A stretch of DNA of 64,000 nucleotides from Candidatus Altiarchaeota archaeon (GCA_043800255.1 JAZDNF010000013.1:22474-86473), one strand, 5' to 3'; shown: positions 1-63,922, counted from the stretch's first letter. Numbers and translations: made by a program. The notes: generated by a model not told the origin, from the sequence alone.

Positions 1-1803
1 CATGTTGCCCTCTATTATGAGAACAGGCTTCGGGAAGTTCCTCACCATCTCGGAGGCCTGATTGAAAAGCCGCCTGTCGACGATAGACTGCAGAAAATCA
101 TCGACCGTCTTCCTCTCAACCGCGACCCTGTCGCTCAGGATATAGTCTGCAATCTCAAGCTGCTTCAGCTCGACAGCGCACTTTTCCCCCAACCGCTCGG
201 CAATGCGGGAATTCCTCTCCCTGACGTCGACAAAGACTTTGACCTCCACAGTACCCTTATCGTCTTTTGGGGTAAAATCCATGATACTCTGCTGTTTGGA
301 ATCGAAGCCGGTCTCCCCTGCCAAGCCTTTCACGAGATTTGACATCTTCTTCTCCTTGTGGTAGGCTGCCCACAGGTAACCCTCATCCCTAGTGCCCTTG
401 GATATCAGAACCTTCACCTCCCCAGCCTCGCTCCTCCCAGTCCTGCCCCGCCGCTGTATTGACCTGATCTCCGACGGTATGGGCTCGTAGAATACAACAA
501 GATCGACCTTCGGGATGTCCAAACCCTCCTCCGCCACAGACGTTGCGACCAGCACATCATAGAGTCCGTCCCTGAAATTCTCAAGGATTTCGACCTGCTT
601 CTTCTGAGTCATCCCCCGCTTGTAGTCCCGGGCAGCCTGGCCGACGAACTCGTGCACGCTGAGGCCGCTGTCAGCCAATGTTTTCACTATCTTCTCCACG
701 GAGTCCCTGTACTGGGTGAACACCAAAACGCGTTTGCCTTTATAATTTTGGACGATCTCGAGCAGCTTCCCGAGCTTCGGATGCTCCACGCCGGAATCCT
801 CGAGGGACTGCACATGCAGTCTCACCTTGGTGAACCTCGGATCAGACAGCAGCTTCCCAACCGCCTTAGACTTCTGCTTCGAAAGCCTCTCCAAGTAATG
901 GTGCAATGCTGACACGCCCTGCGTCTCCAAGAGCTCCAGCGCGTGGTTGACCTTCAATGCTGAGGCAACGACGGAAGCAGCCCCATAGGAGTCGGCGCCA
1001 TCAGTTATCTCCCCCCTTATTTCAGACTGGATTTTCAGCAGGATCCTCTTGTTGATTTTCTTCAGTTCTGCGCTCTCCAGGTAGCCGAGAACCTTCAGCA
1101 TCCTAACATCGTCTCTGAGTATCGACTCTAGTATCTCCTTCAGCCGCTTGAACTCCTCAGGGAGCACAACACCAACCCACTCGACCCTCGTTTCCTGGAC
1201 GTAAGGCCTCACGTCAACGTCCGTCTCAGTCTTAGCCTCAATCTGCTCGATGAACAGGTTAGCGCAGATTTCATCAATCTTCTCCTTCTGGCTGCTTGGA
1301 GACGCAGTCAACGCCAGTATCAGGGATTTGGAACGCTCACTCATGTACTTTCTTGCAATCCTCACGTATGAGTAATCGCCCGACGCCCTGTGGGCTTCGT
1401 CGAATATTATGAGGGAGTAATCCTTGAGGCTGAGGCCGCGTAGGAAGTCATTCTCTATCGTCTGCGGCGTGGCGAACACGAACTGAGCCGCCCAGTAGAG
1501 CTTCTTCCTCTGCGCTATTGGAACGGTTCCCGTGAGCAGCGCAGTGTCAGCCTCAACCAGGTTTTCGTCGAAGGTCCTCTTGTGCTGGACTGCCAACGGC
1601 TTCGTAGGGGCGAGGAACAGCACCTTATCCTGCGGGAACTCGCTTACTCTGGCGACGGCGACCAGCAACGCCACTATGGTCTTTCCCAGCCCGGTCGGCA
1701 GGACTACTAGAGTGTTCTTCTCCAGCGCATTGGAGAATATCCTCTCCTGATACTCCCTGACCTTGATCCGGTTAGGCTTCACCAGACGATGCTCAACGTA
1801 CAT
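1..1803 (-). CDS. hef: Hef-type helicase-nuclease, partial; the C-terminus runs off the window start
   Basis: The minus-strand ORF starts at ATG 1803 and stays open to position 1. It has a Walker A (LVVLPTGLGKT), a DEAH box (FDEAHRA) and helicase C motifs. It ends in an ERCC4/XPF nuclease motif (ERKTVDDF). The ORF track omits it because it is truncated. Confidence 0.8.
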   Translation of the reverse strand, partial: MYVEHRLVKPNRIKVREYQERIFSNALEKNTLVVLPTGLGKTIVALLVAVARVSEFPQDKVLFLAPTKPLAVQHKRTFDENLVEADTALLTGTVPIAQRKKLYWAAQFVFATPQTIENDFLRGLSLKDYSLIIFDEAHRASGDYSYVRIARKYMSERSKSLILALTASPSSQKEKIDEICANLFIEQIEAKTETDVDVRPYVQETRVEWVGVVLPEEFKRLKEILESILRDDVRMLKVLGYLESAELKKINKRILLKIQSEIRGEITDGADSYGAASVVASALKVNHALELLETQGVSALHHYLERLSKQKSKAVGKLLSDPRFTKVRLHVQSLEDSGVEHPKLGKLLEIVQNYKGKRVLVFTQYRDSVEKIVKTLADSGLSVHEFVGQAARDYKRGMTQKKQVEILENFRDGLYDVLVATSVAEEGLDIPKVDLVVFYEPIPSEIRSIQRRGRTGRSEAGEVKVLISKGTRDEGYLWAAYHKEKKMSNLVKGLAGETGFDSKQQSIMDFTPKDDKGTVEVKVFVDVRERNSRIAERLGEKCAVELKQLEIADYILSDRVAVERKTVDDFLQSIVDRRLFNQASEMVRNFPKPVLIIEGNM

Positions 1804-31971: not shown

Positions 31972-33690
31972 ATGCGATGGTTGATTCTCCTTGTAGCGGC
32001 GGTACTGCTAGCGTCCGTATTTGCTGAGGCTTTTCCTCAACTTCCAGAGTACTATGAGAGTTATGTCACAGTCGATGGAATTTATGCATCGAATGGCACT
32101 TATGTTGAGGTTAAAGTTTACGGCACTAATGAGGTCGTGGGTAGCGCAGTAACAAATGAAGGCGGCTACTATGCCTTAACTGTTAACTTTGATGTTGTTG
32201 ATGGTAAGGGGGGCATCGACGAGGGGGCGAACGTAGGAGACCAGTTAGGTTGGTACGTTAACGGCGTTAGTGCAGATAGACCGGCACCCGGATCGGATAC
32301 TGCAGATCCAGGGAGGATAAACCATCTGTTTATCGTGAGCGTCGGGGAGACTCCCCTTAGAATAGTCGATTATGCACCATCGAATTCCACACAAAGGCTT
32401 AACAAGGGTGAGAATATCACCTTTTCTGTAATAGCCATCGGACCCTCAGAGTCGAAGCTAAAATACAATTGGACTATCGATGGAATTGAAAGAAGCACCA
32501 ATAAGAGTTTCACATACGGTTACTCTCCAGAAGTTGTCGGGACAAAGGTTATAAAGGTGCAAATCAGTGATGACTCAGGAGACACGGTTCTTAAAGAATG
32601 GAATCTAACCACCAACACGCGCCCAAGAATATCCCCTCCCATTCCAGCAATCTCGTTTAACAATTCTGCTGTAGTCACTTTCGACTTGATAGAATATGGC
32701 AAAGACAATGAAACCCCACCCGGATTTCTAGAATGGAAAGTCACAGGTGATAGGTACCATCCTCCAGCGTTTGCACACATAGGCGGTCTTAGAAAAACCC
32801 TGAAGATAATCCCCAACCTGGTTTATATCGGCGATGGAAGTTTAGCATTAACGTTAACCGACGCTGGGGGAGCCTCCGTTTCACAAAACATATCTATAGA
32901 CAAGAGCGTCTTCCGTGGCAACACGACAGTACCTCAAATCTTTACCACAACCACTATCCACCAGATAACAGAAAAACCAAGAGAGAGCATAGGGGGAAAA
33001 ATAGTTATATCCCTATTGGCTTTCTTAGTAGTGCTATCAATAATTTTCTTTATAACAAAGTCCAATCAAAAAGCGGTCATCCTCATACTAATATTGTCTT
33101 TTTCTATTGTGCTGCTCTACTGGAATGATTATAAAACAGAGACCAAACCTGTTACTGTAGAATTTGTATCACCTAAAGAACTTAACATAACAAAAGATTA
33201 TGTCCAAATGTGTAGCAATCTCTTCGGACGCTCAGAGGATATTATCGAACAGTTTAGGCTAGATGATTGTTACACCAGCATCGCTGTCTTACTGAGAGAT
33301 TCGTCAATCTGCGAGGAAATAAAGAGGATACATCTAGGATACCAATATGGATGCTATGGTACCAATGCATTATTCTCCCGAAATCCGAACATTTGTCTCA
33401 ATATCGAAAGCGACACGTCTATAGTGGACTGTCTAATTGATTATGCTGATGGATTAGTGGATCCCTCGGTATGTAATGTATTCAAAGGAGATATCGTGAA
33501 GAAGTCAATGTGTAACTATCGCCTTAAGGATGAGTCCCAATTATTTTATCCAAAACCAGAGGAGTATAAATGCCCAACATATAAGCATATAGACTGCATG
33601 CCTATTGTTCCACGTAGTCATACAAAATATTGCTACGGACCTTATCACGAGTGGCTTGAAGAAAACTGCGATATTTATTGGACCATGTAA
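31972..33690 (+). CDS. Surface/membrane protein with an extracellular beta-rich N-region, 2 TM helices and a 200-aa Cys-rich C-domain
   Basis: Signal peptide, two TM segments at about aa 340-385, and a C-terminal region with at least 14 Cys. The gene is visibly A/T-rich relative to its flanks. Confidence 0.55.
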   Translation: MRWLILLVAAVLLASVFAEAFPQLPEYYESYVTVDGIYASNGTYVEVKVYGTNEVVGSAVTNEGGYYALTVNFDVVDGKGGIDEGANVGDQLGWYVNGVSADRPAPGSDTADPGRINHLFIVSVGETPLRIVDYAPSNSTQRLNKGENITFSVIAIGPSESKLKYNWTIDGIERSTNKSFTYGYSPEVVGTKVIKVQISDDSGDTVLKEWNLTTNTRPRISPPIPAISFNNSAVVTFDLIEYGKDNETPPGFLEWKVTGDRYHPPAFAHIGGLRKTLKIIPNLVYIGDGSLALTLTDAGGASVSQNISIDKSVFRGNTTVPQIFTTTTIHQITEKPRESIGGKIVISLLAFLVVLSIIFFITKSNQKAVILILILSFSIVLLYWNDYKTETKPVTVEFVSPKELNITKDYVQMCSNLFGRSEDIIEQFRLDDCYTSIAVLLRDSSICEEIKRIHLGYQYGCYGTNALFSRNPNICLNIESDTSIVDCLIDYADGLVDPSVCNVFKGDIVKKSMCNYRLKDESQLFYPKPEEYKCPTYKHIDCMPIVPRSHTKYCYGPYHEWLEENCDIYWTM

Positions 33691-33846
33691 TTGACTTTTT
33701 GTGCAGGAAGCACTTCTTAGGTAAGCCCGACGAAAAAGTAGCCTTTTTATAGGAGGGTTTCCTAGTCTTTATTCTAAAAAATTATGCTGATTCTGGGTAG
33801 GGTGGAATTTTCTCCCCTATGCCAAGATTTCAGTCGGATAACTGTT

Positions 33847-34302
33847 ATGGCTAGAATGCACGCGCGCAAGAAGGGGAAGTCTTCTTCAAAGAAGCCGGTA
33901 GGCGTTCCCATCAGGGAGTGGGTATCCTATTCTGCCAAGGATTTGGAGGAGATTATAGTGAAGCTCGGCAGGGAAGGGAAAAATGCGAGCGCAATCGGCC
34001 TGACATTGAGGGACCAGTATGGCGTGCCCTCCGTGAGGAACATCACGAAGAGGAGGGTAACGTCGATATTGAAGAAGAACGACCTCGCGCCTAAGATTCC
34101 TGACGACCTGAACAATCTCATAAAAAACGCCGTCAAACTAAGGTCGCATCTGGAGAAGCACGTTAAAGACAAGCACAACAGGAGAGGTTTGACCCTCATG
34201 GAGGCTAAAATCCACAGGCTGTCAAAATACTACAGGAGCAGAGGCTACCTGCCAGAGAGCTGGCGGTACGACCCTCAGAAGGCGAAACTGGAGGGGTTAT
34301 GA
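33847..34302 (+). CDS. rps15: Ribosomal protein S15 (uS15, S13e type)
   Basis: Starts at the internal ATG of the track ORF with MARMHARKKGKSSS, the canonical archaeal S15 N-terminus, and has the S15 C-terminal helix bundle. Confidence 0.85.
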   Translation: MARMHARKKGKSSSKKPVGVPIREWVSYSAKDLEEIIVKLGREGKNASAIGLTLRDQYGVPSVRNITKRRVTSILKKNDLAPKIPDDLNNLIKNAVKLRSHLEKHVKDKHNRRGLTLMEAKIHRLSKYYRSRGYLPESWRYDPQKAKLEGL

Positions 34303-48929: not shown

Positions 48930-50279
48930 CTAGAGCTTCTCCAGGTATTTTGTGATCTCCCAGTCTGAGACGTTTGTCCTGTACTCGTCCCACTCCATCC
49001 TCTTGGCTGTGAGATAGTTCTCGAAGGTGTGCTCTCCGAGAGCTTCGCGCACCAGCTTGCTCTTCCTCATCTCGTCAAGAGCCTCGCCGAGAGATGCTGG
49101 CAAAGTTTTTATGTACATCTCGTCAAGCTTCTTGTTGTCGAACTCGTACACGTCCTCCTCCACAGGGTTCGGAGGCTTCAGCTTCCTCTTTATCCCATCC
49201 AATCCTGCGTGCAGCATAACAGCGAACGCCAAGTAGGGATTGCAGCTCGGGTCAGGACACCTTAGCTCAGCCCTCGTTGACTGCTCCCTGCCGGGACTGT
49301 ACCTTGGTATCCTAATCAAGGCTGACCTGTTGATCTTGCCCCAGCATATGTAGACCGGAGCCTCGTATCCTGGGACAAGCCTCTTGTATGAGTTCACCGT
49401 CGGGGCCAGCACTGCTGACATCGCCCTGACGTGCTCAAGCTGGCCTGCTATGAAACCGTATGCCGTCTTCGACAGGTGGTAGGGATCCTTACCATCGAAG
49501 AACGCTGTCTTCCCCGTTTTCGTGTCGAACAGGCTCTGGTGCACGTGCATGCCGCTCCCGTTTATGCCATATATCGGCTTCGGCATGAAAGTCCCGTAGA
49601 GGTCGTGCAACTGCGCGATGCTCTTGACGGTGTGCTTCAATGTTATCGAGTTGTCAGCGCTGCTCAATGCATCAGAGAACCTGACGTCTATCTCATGCTG
49701 ACCTGGGGCCACCTCATGGTGGCTCATCTCCACGTGCATGCCGAAACTCTCGAGCGCGAATACTATTCCCCGCCTAACGTCTGATGCCATGTCCCTCGCA
49801 GAGTAGTCGAAATATCCCCCAACATCGTGGGGCACTGGGCTGATTTTGCCGTTGTCTGTCTTGAAGAGGAAGAACTCCAACTCAGGGCCGGTATTAAACT
49901 GGTATCCCATCTTCTCAGCCTTCTCAATCGCCCTTTTGAGTATGTATCTCGGATCGCCTTCGAACGGTTTTCCGTCAGGCCTGTAGACGTCTGCAAAAAA
50001 CCTTGCAACTTTCTTCTCCTGCGGCTCCCATGGGAGTATCGCATACGTCGCAGGGTCTGGTTTGAGTATCATGTCAGACTCGTGTATCCTTGCGAACCCC
50101 TCTATCGAGGAGCCGTCAAACCACGTTCCATCGTCCAAGCTTGTCTCAAGATGCTCCACAGTTATGGTGACGCTCTTTATCGCACCCTGTATGTCAGTAA
50201 ACTGCAGGTTGGCGAATTTCACGTCATCCTCCTTCACCTTCTCCAAAACCTTTCCCTTCAATTCATCCAATCTAGTCAT
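48930..50279 (-). CDS. glnA: Glutamine synthetase type I
   Basis: GS beta-grasp and catalytic domains (FDGSS, NGSGMHVHQS, ATP-site motifs). 449 aa. Confidence 0.9.
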   Translation of the reverse strand: MTRLDELKGKVLEKVKEDDVKFANLQFTDIQGAIKSVTITVEHLETSLDDGTWFDGSSIEGFARIHESDMILKPDPATYAILPWEPQEKKVARFFADVYRPDGKPFEGDPRYILKRAIEKAEKMGYQFNTGPELEFFLFKTDNGKISPVPHDVGGYFDYSARDMASDVRRGIVFALESFGMHVEMSHHEVAPGQHEIDVRFSDALSSADNSITLKHTVKSIAQLHDLYGTFMPKPIYGINGSGMHVHQSLFDTKTGKTAFFDGKDPYHLSKTAYGFIAGQLEHVRAMSAVLAPTVNSYKRLVPGYEAPVYICWGKINRSALIRIPRYSPGREQSTRAELRCPDPSCNPYLAFAVMLHAGLDGIKRKLKPPNPVEEDVYEFDNKKLDEMYIKTLPASLGEALDEMRKSKLVREALGEHTFENYLTAKRMEWDEYRTNVSDWEITKYLEKL

Positions 50280-54056: not shown

Positions 54057-55142
54057 ATGGAATCTATTGTCGCCATCTCAGACTCGCATCTCGGCTACCG
54101 CCACAGGTTCAAACTCAAGCGCCTGAAAGACTATGAGAAGGCGTTCAACGAGGCGCTCGCCAAGGCGCTCGACATCAAACCGGCTGTTATCGTCTTCTGC
54201 GGCGACCTCCTCCACCACACCAGGCCTGACCCCAAGAGCATGCGCATCCTGCTGCAGAACCTCATAAAGGCCGCTGAGAGTGCGCAAGTCGTCGTCTGCA
54301 TCGGAAACCACGAGATAGCAGGCCACCTCGGGACAGCCTATTCTCCCATGTTCTCAGACCTTCACAGGAACATCCACGTCCTGACCTCGGAGAACCCCCA
54401 CATCACGCTAACAGTCGATGGGAAGCAGATAGGCTTCCACGGCTTCCAGTACCTCAGGAGCAGGGAATCCGCGGAGGGCATGCTCGAGAGGATATCTACT
54501 CAGGTCTCCGGGAACGACTACAACATATTATGCCTGCACCAGGCCGTTGAGAAGTACCTGAACCCCCATGAGATTTCCCTCAGGGTTCTGCGGGAGGTCG
54601 CGCCAAAGTATAATCTGATCCTGTTAGGCCACGTGCACAAGCACCAGAAGGTCGGCGAAGTCTTTGACATCACCCCAACATACTATGTCGGCTCTACTGA
54701 GAGAATAAGCTTCAACGAATGGCAGAACCAGAACGGCTTCATGGTCTTCAGAGAGTATAAGTTCGGCGAACCGGATTTCGTAAGCGTGTCATCAGCTTCC
54801 ATCAAGAGGATCACAGCAGACTTGGGCGAGACAACCCCGAGCGAGATCAACAACTTCATCGACAGGAGCATAAACGATAGCAAAGGCGTCGATCTCCTGC
54901 AGATCAACATCAGTTCGAAAATGGCGGGGGACTTCTTCGACGTCAGGCAGGACTGGAGCGACTCCTACACCGACTTCACGGTATTGGACGTGAACATACA
55001 ACCTTCTGGCGCGGACAGACGAGTCGACTTCCAGAAGCTGCAGATAAACGAAGAGCTCATAAGAGAATACTTCAAGCAGACAGGCATGGAAGGGCAGAAC
55101 GAGCTCCTAGAAACCTGCATGGAGCTGTACAGCGAGATTTAA
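54057..55142 (+). CDS. Mre11/SbcD-family metallophosphoesterase nuclease
   Basis: All calcineurin-like nuclease motifs are present: I DSH (ISDSHLGY), II GDLLHH, III GNHE, IV H (LCLHQ), V GHVH. It is 361 aa. No rad50 gene is adjacent. Confidence 0.75.
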   Translation: MESIVAISDSHLGYRHRFKLKRLKDYEKAFNEALAKALDIKPAVIVFCGDLLHHTRPDPKSMRILLQNLIKAAESAQVVVCIGNHEIAGHLGTAYSPMFSDLHRNIHVLTSENPHITLTVDGKQIGFHGFQYLRSRESAEGMLERISTQVSGNDYNILCLHQAVEKYLNPHEISLRVLREVAPKYNLILLGHVHKHQKVGEVFDITPTYYVGSTERISFNEWQNQNGFMVFREYKFGEPDFVSVSSASIKRITADLGETTPSEINNFIDRSINDSKGVDLLQINISSKMAGDFFDVRQDWSDSYTDFTVLDVNIQPSGADRRVDFQKLQINEELIREYFKQTGMEGQNELLETCMELYSEI

Positions 55143-55181: not shown

Positions 55182-58100
55182 ATGTCTAAGGTCACTGAAA
55201 AGGATCTAGCAAACGAGAGGCAGAGATTAACCGACGTTCTTAGAAAAATCGCCTTGAAAGCAGACATGCCCATAAAGAAGGCCCTTGACGTAAAATACCC
55301 TGACCCTGAGGTAGGCACCCTGAACTACGCCCTCGCTAGGTCTAAAATCGTCCCGACAAAGGATGTCTGCCCCCACGAGGAGACAATCGAGGCGGCAGTT
55401 TGGAGCATACGAAATATGATGGTGAGGACGGAATCGTCTGACAAACCAATCATCGTTACAAGCAAACGCAAGAACGGCGAGACCATAAAAGATCCCAAGA
55501 CAGGGAGAACAAAGTACGTAATATTAGACGGCATGCACCGATCTGATGCTATGAAGAGAACAGGATGCGAAGACAGTCTCGTGTTTGATATCGACTATGA
55601 GAGGGAGGCTGAACTGCATGGCTGGGATGAGATAGTAGAGAAAAGCAAACAGAATTCGGGTGTGAGCATATTGAATGTGGTAAAGGATACTGTAGAGACT
55701 ATGAACAGGGATTCGGATCGAAAATTCAAAGTTGTCGAAGGCGATGACGATATTAAAACTCTTCACAAGCTGATGGATCCCAAGAGAGGGATGATTGCAT
55801 TCGGAGTAATCGATGATAAGGGCAGGTCATATAAGGTGACATACAAGGACGACTCTGAGCTTGCTCTTAAGGATATTGTCAAGGTGATGAACTTATTTGA
55901 CGAAAAACTTCGTGAGAAACTGGAGTCTGTGGATGACAACCCTAATGAGACGGTAAGGTTCTTCGGAGATGACAAGTCTGCAGACGAATTTAAGAAAAAC
56001 AAAAGTCTTGCGCTTATCACAAGGCCGAGATTCTCCAAGGAAGAGGTCGTTGAGATGGCGCTCAAGGGGGAGAAGGTTCCGATGAAGACCACGAGGCACA
56101 TATTCAAAATGCGGCCCCATATTAGAGTCCCACTGAAGCTTTTGCAGGATAAGTCAGTGCCCTATGCCGCAAAAACAAGACAACTTCACGAAGCCATGGA
56201 GAACGCCAGATATAGGTACTATCCTGAGGGTATCCTAGACTTTGCAGACATTGACGGAAAACTAGATGTTTCCGACAAGTACCTTGGCAAGGAGGAGATG
56301 GAACGTAAAAGACAGGAGCTTTTAGATGACCGCAACAGGGACTGGGCTAAAGAGTTTAAGCAAACCCATGAGTACAGGGTCGCAGGTTCCACAAAGGACG
56401 TCTACCACAGGAGCCCGGAATTCCAAGAACTCTACAAGAGCGTTGAGGGGGGGATAAAATGGCTCCTAAATCCAAAGTGGTATACAACGCAGGATAAATC
56501 CCAGGCTTTCATAATCAACGCTGAAACAACAGTAGCAATGGGGCGGGCCGCATTGTACAGCCTTAGTGAAGGAGAGAGGATTCTCCACATAGATGCAGGC
56601 ACTTTTGGAAAGAGATGGCACAATGAGATCAATAATGAATCAAAGATTAGATCAAATGTATTTGAGATCATACCAGGAACCAAGATAACAGAAGAGATCT
56701 TAGCTAATTTAAAAAAGGAGATTAAAGACGGGGGATATAGTGCCGTTACAGCCGTGCACAATGAGACATCAACTGGGATGGAGCTTCCCATAAGCACGTT
56801 CTCAAAGGTCATAAAGGAGGTCGAAAAGGAAACAGGCAGGGAGATACTATTTTTGGTAGACGCTGCAAGCTCCCTTGGAGGGATGCCAATACCTAATGTT
56901 GAGGATATAGATGTCTTGATTAGCGGCATCGAAAAATGCTTCCAATGCAACGCTGGATTATCGCTTATAGTCATGAGGTCGAGAGCGCTTGAGAAAGCTA
57001 AGAAGTCGATATTGTATAAGGGCGGGACTGGTTTCGAAAGATTGAAGGAATATGCGGACAAAAACCAGACGGTTGGGACTCCAGAATACACTCAGATTAA
57101 GCAACTCCACGAGGTACTGTGTGAGATAGGAGGGTACATATCACTTGATGGTAGATACTATCCTGGAGAGGGAGTAGAAAAAAGATATGAACGCATTAAG
57201 GACTTGGCTAGGGTAACAGAAGAGTGGGCTGAAAAGAGCGGCTTCGGCTTGTTCGCTCCGGAAGGGTTTAGATCATCAACAGTCACCACAATAACAACAG
57301 CCGGTATGAACGTCTCACCAGAGATTGTAAAAGATAGGATAAAAGCTAACTTTGGTATTGAACTTTCCCCAGGCCATAGGGAATTAAAAGAAAAGGAGCA
57401 AAAAATTGATCTGTTGAGGGTAACGCATTTTGGCGCTAAAGGATTGCCTGAGCTTGTGGATAAGGAACTTAATTTAATTTCGATTGTAGTAAAGGATGAG
57501 ATAAGGCAGAAGGCTGCCAGGGGCGAGGTTATTGGGGAAGACGCTGCCAGTAAGATAGGGAAGCTTGATGCTGGAATCAAATTCCTTATGGATCTTAGAA
57601 TACGTAGAGGGAGCAGCAACATTACGCTAAGTAGACGGCAGGAAGTAGATAATATGCGTTTTGAGAAGAAATCAGAGGCTGAAAATCTAGGGCTCAATCC
57701 AAATATTTTCTCGAGGGATGGGTGGCCGCTAGTGACAGCTGGGGTAAACTTGGACCGACTAAACGAGAAGGATAAGGAACGTATCTCCTATCATTCCGAT
57801 TTGCTGATACAATTAGGAGCGAAGACCGCCGCAATCGGGGCAGACCCGAAAGTCCTATTCGAGGAAAGTTTTCACAGGCTTGGCGAAGTCATAAGCTTGG
57901 ATAATCCAGAAAATTTTGAACTCGCCTGTGATATCGGATTAAAAGCAGTTGCTGCAGGCGTAGATCCAAACAAGATATTTACGTATGCACATGATCTCAA
58001 GGGGATCATAGACCACGATAGAGGTGGGTTGAAGACTGCCATCCATCAGTTGATTGTCATGGCGTCAAGCGTTGTCGGAAAATTTGAACTCGATGACGTG

Positions 58101-59357
58101 TATTCGGCATCTGTGATGGGAATGAGAGATCACATAAAGGATGTTGATGACCTTCAGGTGGTATGGGGCATCGTGAAAAAATCGGCTGAATCCAATTTGA
58201 ACCCAACTGATGTCTTCAAGCACATCTCTGGAGTAAGTACTGACGTCTGGAAGAAGAAAGAGTTGACAGATGTGTCGGATAGCATAATCGAATGCCATAA
58301 GATTGGGAGTCGAGTTGGAATAGACGTGCACCGACTTCTGGAGTCAGAAATAATTCCGGCAGGAATCCATAAGAGTGCGTCTGCATTATCTGAGACCTTC
58401 TCGGCGTTGTCAACAGTCTTACAATCAGAGGAGAGATACGGACTACCGCCCCGAATATTAATTGAAAATGCATTACCAGCCATGTCACACATTATAGCAA
58501 AAGACCCTGAGAAATTTGTAAAAGTTGTTAAATTAGTCGATAAATTCGGACAAGACATAAAAACCGGAGGTCATGACATAAATCGTGCCATGAGAAAGCA
58601 GGAGGGGGGCTTGCTCGGCTGTCTGGACACCGTAGGAAGTGTCGAAAATTTTAGTGAATTACTCGACCTGTATCGTCTGACGCTTGACAATGGCAAACGG
58701 CCGAAAGATTGGATTTCACACTTCTCAGAAATCAAAGAAACTCTTACAACGGAAGAAGACATGGGTAAGATACTCAAACTGGGAAATAAGGCGACAGCAG
58801 CAGGACATGACCCTGCAGGACTGTTCAAGGAGCTGTCAAAGTTAAGGAAATTCCTCTCGGATAGTAGTAGCATAGACTTATGCGTTGATTACGGCAATGC
58901 AGCGATAGAGTCGGGGAATAATCCAAGCGCATCATTTAATACAATCTTCCAGATGAGAGGAATCGCAAAAAGCGGCGACCATTTCAACAGCTTATTAGTC
59001 TCTGGGGGGGAGATGTACCGGGGGGGCATTCCCGTGGACCTTATCATGCGCTTCGGCCTAGACAAACTATCGGATATAGTGAGAGAAGCAGACGACATTA
59101 TGGACATAAACGCTGAATTGAGCGGCATATACTCCAAGGTCCATGCTGTGGGAGCCGATGCAGACGGCGTGTTCAAGGACAAATTCCAGAAGATTACGAA
59201 TTTGATTATAGATGTTGACGGCCTCCGTATGCTGAACAGGGAATTTGCTAAGAGGTCCTCACCATCAGAGATAGAGAGACTGTTCACAGATATTCGCAGA
59301 GTAAAGATGGAGTATATGGGAGTGGACAACATAAAAGACATCCTGAGGAACATCTAG
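55182..59357 (+). CDS. Giant (1391-aa) multidomain protein: ParB/Srx-like N-domain + class-V PLP aminotransferase-fold domain + C-terminal array of G-x-(D/N)-P-x-x-h-F helical repeats. No family assigned.
   Basis: ParB-like region (PIIVTSKRK...YVILDGMHRSDAMKRTG). The aminotransferase-V core runs from about aa 430 to 800. It has FIINAETTVAMGRAA, GTFGKRWHNE, VHNETSTGMELPI, a cofactor Asp (FLVDAASSLGG) and a PLP-Lys context (SGIEKCF). At least 6 repeats lie after aa 840 (GADPKVLF, GVDPNKIF, NLNPTDVF, GHDPAGLF, GNNPSASF, GADADGVF). The gene is A/T-richer than its flanks. Confidence 0.6.
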   Translation: MSKVTEKDLANERQRLTDVLRKIALKADMPIKKALDVKYPDPEVGTLNYALARSKIVPTKDVCPHEETIEAAVWSIRNMMVRTESSDKPIIVTSKRKNGETIKDPKTGRTKYVILDGMHRSDAMKRTGCEDSLVFDIDYEREAELHGWDEIVEKSKQNSGVSILNVVKDTVETMNRDSDRKFKVVEGDDDIKTLHKLMDPKRGMIAFGVIDDKGRSYKVTYKDDSELALKDIVKVMNLFDEKLREKLESVDDNPNETVRFFGDDKSADEFKKNKSLALITRPRFSKEEVVEMALKGEKVPMKTTRHIFKMRPHIRVPLKLLQDKSVPYAAKTRQLHEAMENARYRYYPEGILDFADIDGKLDVSDKYLGKEEMERKRQELLDDRNRDWAKEFKQTHEYRVAGSTKDVYHRSPEFQELYKSVEGGIKWLLNPKWYTTQDKSQAFIINAETTVAMGRAALYSLSEGERILHIDAGTFGKRWHNEINNESKIRSNVFEIIPGTKITEEILANLKKEIKDGGYSAVTAVHNETSTGMELPISTFSKVIKEVEKETGREILFLVDAASSLGGMPIPNVEDIDVLISGIEKCFQCNAGLSLIVMRSRALEKAKKSILYKGGTGFERLKEYADKNQTVGTPEYTQIKQLHEVLCEIGGYISLDGRYYPGEGVEKRYERIKDLARVTEEWAEKSGFGLFAPEGFRSSTVTTITTAGMNVSPEIVKDRIKANFGIELSPGHRELKEKEQKIDLLRVTHFGAKGLPELVDKELNLISIVVKDEIRQKAARGEVIGEDAASKIGKLDAGIKFLMDLRIRRGSSNITLSRRQEVDNMRFEKKSEAENLGLNPNIFSRDGWPLVTAGVNLDRLNEKDKERISYHSDLLIQLGAKTAAIGADPKVLFEESFHRLGEVISLDNPENFELACDIGLKAVAAGVDPNKIFTYAHDLKGIIDHDRGGLKTAIHQLIVMASSVVGKFELDDVYSASVMGMRDHIKDVDDLQVVWGIVKKSAESNLNPTDVFKHISGVSTDVWKKKELTDVSDSIIECHKIGSRVGIDVHRLLESEIIPAGIHKSASALSETFSALSTVLQSEERYGLPPRILIENALPAMSHIIAKDPEKFVKVVKLVDKFGQDIKTGGHDINRAMRKQEGGLLGCLDTVGSVENFSELLDLYRLTLDNGKRPKDWISHFSEIKETLTTEEDMGKILKLGNKATAAGHDPAGLFKELSKLRKFLSDSSSIDLCVDYGNAAIESGNNPSASFNTIFQMRGIAKSGDHFNSLLVSGGEMYRGGIPVDLIMRFGLDKLSDIVREADDIMDINAELSGIYSKVHAVGADADGVFKDKFQKITNLIIDVDGLRMLNREFAKRSSPSEIERLFTDIRRVKMEYMGVDNIKDILRNI

Positions 59358-62179
59358 AACAGGCTCTTCACAATCGGTTCCAATTTTTCTGCGCTGCCGC
59401 CTCCGATGCACATCCTATTGTTTCCGCTGTATCCGCCGCCAATCTTCTCTGAAATCTTTTTCGCGACAGCTGACGCGTCCTCCGAGCTCGAAGCGACGAT
59501 GAAGTTAGCCTTCTCTCCTGTGACGTTGAACAAGACCAGCAGCCTGCCCTCTTTTTTAACCAGTTCTTCGGCGATCTTCCTCAGCTCCTTTATGTTAGCG
59601 TCATGGACTATGTAAGCAACCCGGGAGGATTCTTTGAATTTCCTCTCTATATCTTCGACAACTTTGCCGGCATCTAACCCGCCCTGCTTCTCCTTTTCCT
59701 TGCGCAGTCTCTTCCACTCGCTGAAAAGTATTTCAGATGCTGATGCCAGGTCAGAGCTGCTGCCCAAGGTTATCTCTCCAAATTCTTTGCACTCGCGCAC
59801 GAACCTTTCTAGGGTCTCCGGCAGTTTTTCCTTCTGCACTGAGAAGACTGCCGCAGCCTTAGTCAGAGCTTCCCTGTTGAACTCCCTGTTTCTGACATCT
59901 GCCGGCAGGTTCTCCAATGATTTTTGGAACAGCTCCTCCTCAGTCCCGCTGTGCTTGTCGGAGGCTGCCCCAGCCTTGAACTCCAGCCTTACGATTCCGT
60001 CCTGTATCCTCTTCGACCTCACCAGGGTTATCCTGCCAGCCTCTTTGGTGTTGTTGAGGTGGGTTCCACCGCAGGCTTCAGCATCAACACCCTTTATTTC
60101 AACAATCCTCAGCTCTGTGCCAGGCACTGCACCGCCCTGGTACAATCTGAAGCCGTGCTTCTCCTCAGCCTCGTTCCGCTTCATTATCGAGACACGTATT
60201 GGGATGGCCTTCCCAACGAGCAGGTTAGCCTCCGTCTCTATCTTCTTCAGTTCATCGTCCGATACGCCCCTGTAGTGTGTGATGTCCAATCTTGAGATGT
60301 CAACGCTCTTGTGAGCTCCCGCCTGCCACACGTGCGGACCGAGAACCTTCCTGGCAGACACGTTCACAATGTGCGTCGCAGTATGATGCTGCGACAGCTG
60401 AGTCCTCCTGTCCCAGTCGACTTTTCCGCTGACTAGCATACCTTCCCTGAATTTTCCTGCTGAGTCCACCTTGTGCGCTATCACGTTGCCGGCCTTCTGC
60501 ACGTCCAGCACTTTCGCACTTCCGATGATGCCGTAGTCAGCCTCCTGGCCTCCGCCCTCAGGATAGAACAGTGTTCTGTCAAGGATGAGATAGTCTCCTT
60601 CAACCCCCAAGACCGTTGCGTTGAACTCCGGGCCCTCACGCTCGTAATAGAGCTGCTTGGTCTCATCGTAGTTCCCCTTCAGCTGCAGCTCCTGCTTTTT
60701 CTCCCCCTCAACTTGCTCGTGCCTTTCCTCCACCAGGCCGTAGAAGTTTTCCGGAATCCTCAGGTCAGAGTTGAACTCCTTTATCAGCTCCGGGTTGATT
60801 CCTTGGGAGTCGTAGAGTCCGACCAGCTTCTCAGGGGTGAACTTCTCCCCAGAGCCTATCATCTTGCTGACCAGAGTCTTGCACTTGCGCCTGTTCTCAT
60901 CGTACCTCTCACGCTCGACGTCTATTATCTCATGCAGGCTTCCCTTCTCCCTGAGTTCGGTGTACCATTCACCGAACTCGTTCACGTGCTTGTCCAACAC
61001 CTTGTGCAGGTCTATGCTCCAGCCGTGCTCATCCATAAGAGACCAGCATCTCCTCAGAATGCTCCTCAGGTTGTAGCCTCCTCCAACGTTGCTGGGCAGC
61101 GCACCGTCGTGTATGGCAACCAGGAGTGTTCTAGTATGGTCTGCTATCGCGTACAACGCCCTCCTCAGGTAGACCTCCTTCTTCAGCTCATCCAAGGTTA
61201 TGCCCATCTCAGTTGAGACCTGGTTCCAGACAGGGTCCAGGTTGCCTAACTCGTCGATGTCCAATAGGCCGGCGTACCTTGCGAACTGGCTCCACATCCG
61301 GTTATCGGGCTTGACTCCGGTCTCCCTGTACAGGTGTTTCATCACATCTGGGAAGACGGTGTCGTAGCTCATCGGGACTCCCTGGCTGAACCACGACCAC
61401 CTCTCGAGGCCTGCTCCCATGTCGATGACCTTCGTCTTCAATTCCCTGGATGTTCCGTCCTGGAGGACCTCGTACTGCATGTAAACCTGGTTCCCGAGCT
61501 CCAAACCCCTGGAGAAGAATTCCATGCTCGGCCCGAAGTTGCCGCCGCCTGCCCAAACGTCCTCGTGATAGAATATCTCCTCAGGCTTTATTCCCAAACC
61601 TTTGGTTAGGAACTCGTGCATCTGTTTGATGCCTTCATCCTTGAAGTAGACGTTCGGCTTCTCTGGTGTCCTGAACGTATGCTGGCCGACCATTATGAAC
61701 CCAGTATAATGCCTGCCGGTGATTCCGACAGAGTCTATGTCCGGGAACCTCAGGCAGAATTGCGGCTCCAGCACCGCATCAGCCGACGGCTCCACGAGGC
61801 CTGCGACCACGTACGGTTGGAAGTCGTTGATTCCCGCGTTAACAAAGTAGAGCTCATCATACCATCTGCACACCACAGGATACCTTTTGATTGGAACATA
61901 GTCCCACTTTTTGAAGATTTTGACGTACTCATCCCATGCGCCCTTGTAGGAGAACTTCTTCTTCGTCAGTTTTTCGCCGATGAACCTGTAGCCTCCGGAA
62001 CAGGATGGCTCGTCACAATAATCCCTTTCAACCGCAGACCAGAAGCCTCGCCCGCATTTCTTGCAGACTTTCCTCGAGAACCCAATCTCCTCAAGACTGC
62101 CTACAGGATAATACTTCTCAAAGTTCCTGTGGAATTCAGGCTTCTTCTGCCTCTTAAGCTCCTTGAAATCCCAAGCCAT
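59354..62179 (-). CDS. alaS: Alanyl-tRNA synthetase (archaeal type)
   Basis: 941 aa with the archaeal AlaRS N-terminus (KVCKKCGRGFWS zinc ribbon), a class II core, the editing HxxxH...CGGTH motif and a C-terminal DHHA1-like domain. Confidence 0.9.
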   Translation of the reverse strand: MAWDFKELKRQKKPEFHRNFEKYYPVGSLEEIGFSRKVCKKCGRGFWSAVERDYCDEPSCSGGYRFIGEKLTKKKFSYKGAWDEYVKIFKKWDYVPIKRYPVVCRWYDELYFVNAGINDFQPYVVAGLVEPSADAVLEPQFCLRFPDIDSVGITGRHYTGFIMVGQHTFRTPEKPNVYFKDEGIKQMHEFLTKGLGIKPEEIFYHEDVWAGGGNFGPSMEFFSRGLELGNQVYMQYEVLQDGTSRELKTKVIDMGAGLERWSWFSQGVPMSYDTVFPDVMKHLYRETGVKPDNRMWSQFARYAGLLDIDELGNLDPVWNQVSTEMGITLDELKKEVYLRRALYAIADHTRTLLVAIHDGALPSNVGGGYNLRSILRRCWSLMDEHGWSIDLHKVLDKHVNEFGEWYTELREKGSLHEIIDVERERYDENRRKCKTLVSKMIGSGEKFTPEKLVGLYDSQGINPELIKEFNSDLRIPENFYGLVEERHEQVEGEKKQELQLKGNYDETKQLYYEREGPEFNATVLGVEGDYLILDRTLFYPEGGGQEADYGIIGSAKVLDVQKAGNVIAHKVDSAGKFREGMLVSGKVDWDRRTQLSQHHTATHIVNVSARKVLGPHVWQAGAHKSVDISRLDITHYRGVSDDELKKIETEANLLVGKAIPIRVSIMKRNEAEEKHGFRLYQGGAVPGTELRIVEIKGVDAEACGGTHLNNTKEAGRITLVRSKRIQDGIVRLEFKAGAASDKHSGTEEELFQKSLENLPADVRNREFNREALTKAAAVFSVQKEKLPETLERFVRECKEFGEITLGSSSDLASASEILFSEWKRLRKEKEKQGGLDAGKVVEDIERKFKESSRVAYIVHDANIKELRKIAEELVKKEGRLLVLFNVTGEKANFIVASSSEDASAVAKKISEKIGGGYSGNNRMCIGGGSAEKLEPIVKSLF

Positions 62180-62240: not shown

Positions 62241-62795
62241 ATGTTTACGATGAACGTCCTATTCGCGACAGGCAACAGGCATAAGGTATCGGAGGCTAAT
62301 CGTGTTGGGAAAGAATACGGTGTAAAGTTTGTCAGAGTTTCCTGCCCGTACCCTGAGATAAGGGACGAGTCCCTGGAGAGGATAGCGTCGGAGGGCGTCA
62401 AGCATGTCTACTCCCGGCTCAAGAAGCCTGTCATCGTGGAGGACTCAGGCCTCTTCCTGAAAGCCTACGATGGATTCCCATCCCCCTATTCAGCCTACGT
62501 GTTCGAGAAGATAGGCAATGGAGGGATGCTGAAGCTCGTGAGGGGAAAGAGGAACAGGAATGCGGCCTTCAAATCCGTAATAGCCTACTATGACGGCAAA
62601 AAACTTAGAACATTCACTGGAGAGGTTAAAGGCAGGATCGCCTTGAAAAAATCCGGGAACGCAGGCTTCGGCTACGACCCCATATTCATACCAAAAGGCC
62701 ACAGCAGGACCTTCGCCCAGGACCCAGAACTGAAGGAGAAGATTTCGCACAGGAGCAGAGCCTTCAAGAAGCTGATAACGTGGCTGAAGGATTAA
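62241..62795 (+). CDS. Non-canonical purine NTP pyrophosphatase (Ham1/ITPase)
   Basis: Ham1 motifs (TGNRHK, VIVEDSGLF, FGYDPIF). Confidence 0.8.
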   Translation: MFTMNVLFATGNRHKVSEANRVGKEYGVKFVRVSCPYPEIRDESLERIASEGVKHVYSRLKKPVIVEDSGLFLKAYDGFPSPYSAYVFEKIGNGGMLKLVRGKRNRNAAFKSVIAYYDGKKLRTFTGEVKGRIALKKSGNAGFGYDPIFIPKGHSRTFAQDPELKEKISHRSRAFKKLITWLKD

Positions 62796-63922
62796 ACCTG
62801 TTCTGCGCCTATCGGCAATGATGTGTCCCCGAACTGTATTATCTGGACGTTCACTGTGATATTATCCCCCTCTGAAGCGTTAGGAAAGAGGAACGCGTTC
62901 ATCTCATTGTCCAGTCTGATAATCTTCCCGTCAAGCACCAGCCCGCTCGGTGTTGAGACCGTGCCCTCGCGCCTGATGAACGGGTTCGTAATACCATTAG
63001 CCTGGAGGAGCTCCTCCACCCGCTCTCCTGTGCCGTTCAACAGCAAGTTTACTGTCCCGTTCACTATTGAATAGTTCGCCTTCATCTTGTCCAATCTTGA
63101 TTTAAGGCCTTTGAAGTCGTCTGAGGACAGGAGAACAGCCTCGCCTTTTAGGGTAACGTTTGCTCCCTCGTTGGAGAGTTTCTCCAGGGTGCCGTTATCC
63201 AGGCCATATGAGGAGAAGCTGGGCTGCGCGAGGGTGTGATTTTCCACGCCCAACTCTTCTATCAGGCTGCCGAGTTCCAGCGGCCGGTCAAAGGATGCGA
63301 AAACCCTCATGCGTCCGGCATCCAGCACCTGGGCGTCGAATTCCGAGCCAGCCGAAAGCTTCGCAGTCTCAAGGCCTATCAACTCTTCAGGAATGTTGTC
63401 AACGACCTTCTGGAACAATATGATGGCAAGGTTGTCGCCGATCTCAAGGCCGGTCTCGCCCACAACGTATACGCTGTCCTTCCCGACCTTCCCCACGTAG
63501 GCTCTGTGAAGCGTGTACTTCCCCAACTCAGACCTGGCCAGCCGCTCTATCGCGGGCAATGCCGCGGTCAGGTTGTTTACCTCGAATTTGACCATCAGGT
63601 AGGCGTCCGACAGTTCGATTCTGACTTCGCTTACGCCGTCAATTGCGGATTCCTGTATGTTCAGGAGGTTTTCCCTCTGGAGGAAGTCAGACCTCGCTGG
63701 CATCAGGACGTACTCGTCAGTCTTGCCGGTTATGACCGCCAGTATGGTCTCGTTGCCTGCGACCACGACAGAATACTGGTCCAAGTTCAGTTCAGCCTCC
63801 TCAGGCTGCTCATAGTCTGTGGTGTTCGTGAACACGAAAAACGCTGAGAACAGCATCACAACGATTATCAGGTATATCATGCCCCGGTTCTCCTTCCCGG
63901 TCTTCTTCCCGCCCTTTTTCAT
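62792..63922 (-). CDS. Membrane-anchored extracellular protein, hypothetical
   Basis: Basic N-terminus plus a single TM anchor, then a beta-rich region with several N-x-T/S sequons (NETI, NLTA, NHTL, NGTL, NVTL). Confidence 0.45.
   Translation of the reverse strand: MKKGGKKTGKENRGMIYLIIVVMLFSAFFVFTNTTDYEQPEEAELNLDQYSVVVAGNETILAVITGKTDEYVLMPARSDFLQRENLLNIQESAIDGVSEVRIELSDAYLMVKFEVNNLTAALPAIERLARSELGKYTLHRAYVGKVGKDSVYVVGETGLEIGDNLAIILFQKVVDNIPEELIGLETAKLSAGSEFDAQVLDAGRMRVFASFDRPLELGSLIEELGVENHTLAQPSFSSYGLDNGTLEKLSNEGANVTLKGEAVLLSSDDFKGLKSRLDKMKANYSIVNGTVNLLLNGTGERVEELLQANGITNPFIRREGTVSTPSGLVLDGKIIRLDNEMNAFLFPNASEGDNITVNVQIIQFGDTSLPIGAEQV

Follow-up and report, generated by a model that had tools for sequence, protein, structure and literature searches.

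A presumed TPR-like alpha-hairpin repeat tail on a SerK-like/aminotransferase fusion protein of Candidatus Altiarchaeota

The TPR is a repeat of 34 amino acids (aa) with the signature W4, L7, G8, Y11, A20, F24, A27 and P32; TPR arrays are typically protein-docking scaffolds appended to enzymes, and orphan alpha-solenoid tails are common. The kinase SerK makes O-phosphoserine (Makino et al., PMC5120207), and serK clusters with aminotransferase genes in some Desulfurococcales, an arrangement that has been read as a serine-assimilation route (PMC5120207). In this work we analysed a gene for a 1391-aa protein in a 64,000-nucleotide (nt) stretch of DNA from a Candidatus Altiarchaeota archaeon (GCA_043800255.1 JAZDNF010000013.1:22474-86473; the whole stretch is called the window below), in which a SerK-like domain and a class-V aminotransferase domain are followed by a repeat tail. 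The tail, aa ~821-1391 (~570 residues), occupies the 3' 40% of the open reading frame (ORF) 55182-59357. Our verdict is that its sequence family has not been described before, while its kind, a TPR-like alpha-hairpin array, is well known. We regard it as fairly probable that its ~14 units form a presumed TPR-like solenoid serving as a protein docking or assembly module.

The repeat and its sole relative

An earlier note, made from the sequence alone, had quoted seven motif strings from the C-terminal part of the protein and taken them for an internal repeat. All seven strings were found in frame where it had placed them, and an eighth copy, GLNPNIF at aa 837, falls on the first coordinate of its region, nt 57690. 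The seven are IGADPKVLF at aa 885 (nt 57834), LDNPENFEL at aa 906 (57897), AGVDPNKIF at aa 925 (57954), NLNPTDVF at aa 1005 (58194), AGHDPAGLF at aa 1207 (58800), SGNNPSASF at aa 1244 (58911) and VGADADGVF at aa 1323 (59148). The pattern G.[DN]P..[LIVMAS]F was observed 4 times where 0.003 occurrences are expected from 20,000 shuffles, an enrichment of about 1000-fold, and [DN]P..[LIVMAS]F was observed 5 times against 0.035 expected from shuffles. In a Smith-Waterman self-alignment of the tail, the best off-diagonal score was 96, which is 8.5 standard deviations (SD) above the score of shuffled sequences (38 +/- 6.8). This alignment corresponds to a duplicated module of ~150 aa (aa 865-1013 against aa 1185-1332; 24.5% identity over 159 columns, blastp E 4e-8), both copies of which hold three of the quoted motifs at equal relative positions. 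We concluded that the internal repeat is real and statistically solid, as the earlier note had held.

The length of 45-110 aa that had been proposed for the unit had to be replaced by ~37-45 aa. The distance between neighbouring strong motifs is 40 or 37 aa, each gap of 79-80 aa skips one degenerate unit, and the alignment with the relative P0002 described below, together with the predicted helices, gives about 14 units, R0 to R13 (Table 1). Comparison of module M1 (R1-R4) with module M3 (R9-R12) gave a Smith-Waterman score of 90 (z = 11.1, reached in 0 of 500 shuffles). M1 also matched M2, with a score of 53 (z = 4.5) and a shift of one unit that places R1-R3 on R6-R8, so that GLPP and IKTGGHD, two variant turns, lie within the match; the comparison of M2 with M3 was non-significant. 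When the single sequence was compared with itself by hhalign, R1-R2 aligned with R9-R10 (E 7e-4) and R1 with R12, and no other pair was recovered; a hidden Markov model (HMM) built from the six strong units missed the intermediate ones (P about 0.08). The degenerate units are backed by the module duplication, by P0002 and by predicted secondary structure; within M2, aa 1129-1189 align in register to the P0002 repeats, being the only non-seed piece that P0002 detects. R0 is probably an N-terminal cap unit and R13 probably a C-terminal cap. The string LDNPENFEL, put forward as a possible degenerate copy, does carry a cap (LDN-PENF), which sits at the other junction of the hairpin, that between R1 and R2. 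No further copy of the repeat was found elsewhere in the window or in the loci L001-L003.

Table 1. Positions of the 1391-aa gene, its domains and repeat modules in the window, and of two homologues in their own loci
Feature	Position	Strand	Residues	Turns or description	Basis
Whole gene	55182..59357	+	1391 aa	three-part protein	ORF
SerK-like (ParB/Srx-fold) domain	55359..56138	+	aa ~60-319		NCBIfam NF053625
Class-V (AGXT / phosphoserine-type) aminotransferase domain	56376..57464	+	aa ~399-761		PF00266; PDB 2dr1, 3ffr
R0	57642..57734	+	aa 821-851	LGLN-P (GLNPNIF)	motif; helix-loop-helix in model 1, low confidence
Module M1, R1-R4	57792..58271	+	aa 871-1030	IGAD-P, AGVD-P, degenerate VVGKFE, SNLN-P	duplication with M3
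Module M2, R5-R8 (degenerate)	58272..58760	+	aa 1031-1193	GID-V, GLPP-R, IKTG-GHD, NGKRP-K	shifted match to M1
Module M3, R9-R12	58761..59222	+	aa 1194-1347	AGHD-P, SGNN-P, GGIP-V, VGADADG	M1 duplication; P0002 in register
R13	59223..59354	+	aa 1348-1391	RSS-PSEIERLF	predicted helices
P0002	L001 8001-13862		1953 aa	~27 tandem repeats at aa ~224-1250	
P0003	L003 6001-8331		776 aa	tail-less homologue	

To find relatives in metagenomes had been suggested by the earlier note, and one was found. When 1.84 billion protein cluster representatives were scanned exhaustively with phmmer, the search returned the query itself and a single relative, P0002 (E 5.6e-14). This archaeal metagenome protein (contigs ERZ23491059 scaffold_5219 and Ga0073581_108051), whose gene has eIF2-gamma and ribosomal protein S6e as neighbours, carries near-perfect tandem repeats of 37 or 41 aa with the consensus DNYFNKLIELSNKCVENNIDPEDVLNGLSNIKELI. 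The window tail aligns to these repeats without interruption across four to five units, its D/N-P falling on their D-P. The phmmer score of the tail against P0002 was 68 bits, as against -1.6 for the reversed query, at most 0.3 for 150 shuffles and at most 6.0 for shuffles of 7-residue blocks. By hhalign, a profile of the 14 window units matched a profile of 25 P0002 units with a probability of 89% (E 2.3e-6), in register and from one end of the unit to the other. An HMM built from the P0002 units alone gave a marginal match to the window (independent E-value 0.34) and no match in PDB. Judged by these alignments, the window tail is homologous to the P0002 repeats and shares their unit register.

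Contig scans with the tail against genome and metagenome collections, and with the P0002 repeats against the genome collection, yielded no relatives. A word-indexed search with the tail and with a four-unit profile came back empty and missed even the query's own entry, hence it is uninformative; negatives of this search are unreliable for low-complexity or repeat queries, and with the N-terminal part it did return the query's own entry. The repeat family is essentially an orphan, consisting of two proteins among 1.84 billion representatives and having no curated model. The ~220-aa N-terminal and ~700-aa C-terminal regions of P0002 are also free of Pfam and NCBIfam matches, so that P0002 is a second orphan giant. 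A match of Pfam DUF3709 to P0002 segments was rejected; it spans 11 residues, lies below the cut-off and is absent from the window.

Relation to described repeat families and predicted fold

The repeat, its duplication and its homology to P0002 are established, and so is the lack of a match to any curated family. The tail matched no Pfam or NCBIfam model at E <= 1, and its best PDB sequence match had E 0.12. None of the Pfam models of TPR, Sel1, HEAT, ARM, Ank and PPR was found in the whole domain (E <= 1) or in four-unit segments and single units (E <= 10), and none of those of PBS-lyase, mTERF, Puf and TAL in the 555-aa domain (E <= 1) or in single units (E <= 10). For ankyrin, the sequence also lacks a TPLH motif, and the period of 37-45 aa differs from the 33-aa unit. 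The earlier statement that the repeat is none of HEAT, TPR, Sel1, ankyrin and PBS-lyase holds in this respect; for TPR it was too strong, as a profile search showed. The profile A3, a four-unit alignment of two window rows and six P0002 rows, matched the engineered consensus TPR protein CTPR-rv4 (7obi_A) with E 1.9e-6; three repeats align in register, DP falls on the TPR 'LDPNN', and ~3 residues per unit have to be deleted. A3 also matched the designs 5fzr and 5fzq (E 0.005-0.01).

This match favours an interpretation in which the tail is a bona fide, highly divergent domain of the TPR superfamily, that is, an unannotated TPR with an insertion of 3-7 residues per repeat. TPR proteins (OGT, YrrB, LGN, MamA and a consensus TPR superhelix) likewise populate the list obtained with Foldseek from the predicted structures, where all matches are non-significant. 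We consider this interpretation unlikely. A3 matched no natural TPR in PDB, no model of the Pfam TPR clan (CL0020) was detected at the thresholds given above, and the unit of 37-45 aa is not the 34 aa of TPR. In addition, most of the signal comes from the P0002 rows: the window rows alone gave 0.7-5.4 bits (shuffled maximum 3.7) and the P0002 rows alone 8.8-10.7 bits, while the classic CTPR3 consensus gave 2.3 bits and hhalign of the window unit profile against CTPR3 a probability of 0.4%. On the profiles, the similarity to TPR thus appears fragile and marginal. Because neither its unit length nor the curated profiles agree with TPR, the tail is not classed as TPR, yet its predicted architecture is TPR-like.

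The structure of the tail was predicted with AlphaFold2 (AF2) in two ways. Without a multiple sequence alignment (MSA), the mean predicted local distance difference test score (pLDDT) was 47.9 and the predicted TM-score (pTM) 0.36, with only aa ~1151-1276 (R8-R11) at pLDDT 70-89. With a pseudo-MSA of six rows, made from the window halves and P0002 segments, the mean pLDDT was 56.0 and the pTM 0.43, again without a confident global fold. Both models are entirely helical, and the predicted helices alternate between long and short at regular spacing across the tail. In the DSSP assignment the motif copies all form loops of 4 residues, each after a helix of ~16 aa and before a shorter helix that starts at the Pro; the loops are LGLN-P, IGAD-P, AGVD-P, SNLN-P, AGHD-P and SGNN-P, with GID-V, GLPP-R, NGKRP-K and GGIP-V as degenerate forms. 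Established helix-capping rules place Gly at C', Asp or Asn at the N-cap and Pro at N1. Because these rules fit the loop positions, the G-x-D/N-P motif is, in the models, a capping box, a structural turn between helices. The window-only unit profile found the same type of turn in PDB, where it matched the 'AAELGLDPDAI' connectors of the de novo designed helical repeat 8v2d_J (E 2.6e-6), which is also second in the Foldseek list of model 1.

Several points weigh against the solenoid and docking reading given at the outset. The confidence of both AF2 models is low, and Foldseek searches with them returned no match at E < 0.1; their non-significant lists consist mostly of designed helical repeats and TPR, ARM and HAT proteins. 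Of the proposed solenoid of helix-turn units, the all-helical content and the position of the motif at the turn are consistent with the models, whereas the solenoid itself did not emerge from them. Internal periodicity was the check that the earlier note had proposed; the repeat is significant in the Smith-Waterman self-alignment, but fixed-lag BLOSUM autocorrelation of the tail is non-significant (z 1.4-2.0 at lags 36-40). The units R0, R5 and R13 are without statistical sequence support and derive from motif remnants or predicted helices (R5 from helices only). As to docking, the role is assigned by pure analogy with other alpha-solenoids, and no partner, conserved neighbour or orthologue set supporting it was found in the searched collections.

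Part of these results would suit an arrangement without a superhelix, in which two diverged helical bundles of ~150 aa are joined by a linker and the G-x-D-P turns are generic helix caps. The ~150-aa duplication and six to eight strong turns are the only statistically solid elements, no significant fixed-lag periodicity is seen, and AF2 gives no confident global fold. We think such bundles quite improbable, however, since P0002 is an unmistakable tandem array of 37-aa units to which the window aligns in register over four to five units, the alternation of long and short predicted helices is regular throughout the tail, and M2 matches M1 with a one-unit shift.

Fused enzymes, gene setting and proposed role

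The 1391-aa protein was identified by exact look-up as MFH0861059.1, 'aminotransferase class V-fold PLP-dependent enzyme' (PLP, pyridoxal phosphate), from a metagenome-assembled genome of Candidatus Altiarchaeota; it is the sole member of its 90%-identity cluster. Its first domain matched the NCBIfam model of the ADP-dependent serine kinase SerK, NF053625, with E 1.3e-7 and 31 bits over model positions 22-241 of 244, far under the equivalog cut-off of 380 bits. At the sequence level this shows homology of fold and family, with SerK function only putative. The aminotransferase domain passes the gathering threshold of PF00266 (31.5 against 21.5 bits) and matched 2dr1 (E 1.4e-18) and the SerC structure 3ffr (E 4e-11) in PDB; S-G-I-E-K, spotted by eye, is a candidate position of the PLP lysine. 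Both domains, as the fusion 55182-57464 (aa 1-761), are conserved in P0003, a metagenomic protein that holds them in one chain (36% identity over 85% of the query) and stops right after the aminotransferase, without a repeat tail. Since P0003 lacks the tail, the tail appears to be a lineage-specific accessory outside the catalytic unit.

The earlier note had also suggested a DNA-binding scaffold, and the tail could in principle be a modular nucleic-acid-binding repeat of the PPR, OPR, HPR, TALE or mTERF-like kind, reading one base or a few bases per unit. The 37-38-aa period resembles heptatricopeptide and octotricopeptide repeats, the top Foldseek entry for model 1 is a helical-repeat protein of the Toxoplasma mitoribosome (9i05_Xh), and the tail is attached to a ParB-fold domain downstream of an Mre11/SbcD-like gene. 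The tail is, however, acidic (pI 5.5, net charge -15.7), by which DNA binding is disfavoured and, together with the lack of a Pfam match, assignment to PPR, OPR or HPR as well. Matches to the Pfam models of PPR, mTERF, Puf and TAL are likewise missing, 9i05_Xh is non-significant (E 0.45), the ParB-fold domain matches SerK over its full length and not DNA-binding ParB, and P0003 does without the tail. A nucleic-acid-binding role is therefore very improbable.

For the favoured reading, the solenoid-like docking module, we propose the following. Each unit would begin with a helix of ~16 aa; a 4-residue turn would lead into a second, shorter helix of ~10-14 aa, and a short linker, acidic or rich in Ser, would follow. 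The signature h-x-x-h-G-x-K-x-x-x-x-G-x-[DN]-P-x-x-h-F would be structural: Gly would C-cap the first helix, the next one would be N-capped by Asp or Asn and start with Pro, and the hydrophobic pair after the Pro would pack back on the preceding helix. The array would have grown by duplication of a four-unit module of ~150 aa, seen as R1-R4 and as R9-R12, the module that separates these two copies being more degenerate. The hairpins would stack into a TPR-like solenoid offering a surface for protein-protein docking or assembly, through which the SerK-like kinase and the aminotransferase fused to it would be bound to a partner or linked with one another, the tail itself being neither nucleic-acid-binding nor catalytic. 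The fused enzymes may plausibly convert serine to O-phosphoserine and then to 3-phosphohydroxypyruvate, a series for which the fusion is a possible Rosetta-stone link (PMC5120207). By analogy with other alpha-solenoids appended to enzymes, then, docking between proteins or self-assembly is the most likely function of the tail.

A more specific proposal would make the tail and P0002 an undescribed, archaea-restricted family of 37/41-aa alpha-hairpins with a G/N-x-D/N-P turn that arose independently of TPR, and would make the tail a scaffold coupling the fused enzymes to a specific partner, with the O-phosphoserine-consuming machinery for making cysteine or Cys-tRNA as a candidate, in a channelled metabolon of Altiarchaeota. 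We hold this to be distinctly unlikely.

The surroundings of the gene are those of an ordinary archaeal chromosome, with genes nearby for a glutamine synthetase, an ammonium transporter, a NOG1-type GTPase, an alanyl-tRNA synthetase, a Ham1 NTPase and a chorismate synthase. The gene itself is a compositional outlier in all three of its domains, with a GC content of 0.44-0.46 and a GC content at third codon positions (GC3) of 0.46-0.55, compared with ~0.53 and 0.70-0.76 in the flanking genes (54057-55142, 59354-62179 and 48930-50279). This composition suggests horizontal acquisition, or else very different codon usage or expression. The Mre11/SbcD-like phosphoesterase gene 54057-55142 (+) ends 40 bp upstream on the same strand; it matches NCBIfam Mre11 models with E ~1e-17, far under their cut-offs, and no Rad50-like gene adjoins it. 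Two other ORFs of the window may be recorded: one of 572 aa at 31972-33690 (+), without a Pfam match, which has a DHH-family gene on one side and ribosomal protein genes on the other and falls in the part of the window with the lowest GC content (0.428, 32001-34000), and one of 376 aa at 62792-63922 (-), without a Pfam or NCBIfam match.

The gene of P0003 stands near the end of a same-strand gene cluster (L003 15-8935) in the order Metallophos phosphatase, VWA, Ser/Thr kinase-FHA, 126-aa ORF, ClpB-like AAA+, YbjN/CesT-like chaperone, P0003 and 204-aa ORF. The cluster resembles a cassette of the signalling or conflict type, where one would hardly expect a metabolic enzyme. A conserved Metallophos neighbour of the two fusions was rejected, the Mre11/SbcD-like gene having no similarity to the phosphoesterase of the P0003 locus. 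In a six-frame scan of L003, the 204-aa ORF 3' of P0003 gave no match to A3 at E <= 1.

Comparison with described systems

About 40% of a protein labelled only 'aminotransferase' is a repeat missed by current domain libraries, and a new repeat model for Pfam could be started from the alignment of its units. The SerK-like/aminotransferase fusion would lend support to the proposed archaeal route that assimilates serine through phosphoserine to 3-phosphohydroxypyruvate, and if the tail recruits a defined partner, enzyme channelling would be implied in a poorly studied DPANN-related lineage. Nothing points to a new mechanism.

The enzyme part matches both SerK (T. kodakarensis TK0378) and class-V aminotransferases. 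Some Desulfurococcales have the two as clustered genes, whereas here they form one fused chain that also bears the repeat tail; as the match to SerK is far below the equivalog cut-off, the substrate specificity of the fused enzyme is only putative. In the designed helical repeat 8v2d_J, a component of the nanocage O43_129, the connector helix-'ELGLDPDAI'-helix is the same capping solution as the A-A-G-x-D-P-x-x-h of the tail. That protein is artificial and only ~20 residues around the turn align, so the likeness would be that of a convergent ideal helix cap and not homology.

Sel1-like and HEAT/ARM repeats, whose units measure 36-47 aa, belong to the alpha-solenoids and often serve as interaction modules fused to enzymes, which is the presumed kind of the tail. 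The tail lacks the Sel1 signature G-x-G-V-x-x-D and the D/R pattern of HEAT, and ARM units have three helices, unlike the predicted hairpins of the tail. With TPR the tail shares, as far as predicted, units that are two-helix hairpins, an Asp-Pro before the next helix and Gly or Ala at helix-helix contacts; it differs in lacking the W4-L7-G8-Y11...A20-F24-A27 signature.

The closest system is P0002. It has other flanking domains, with no kinase or aminotransferase, and amino-acid usage of a very low-GC type; its ~27 units are near-identical (46% mean column identity), whereas the ~14 units of the window are strongly diverged (23%), and the residue before the turn is Asn or Lys in P0002 and Gly in the window tail. 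Both arrays nevertheless have in common a mixture of 37- and 41-aa units and the register L-x-x-K-x-x-x-N/G-x-[DN]-P-x-x-V-[LF].

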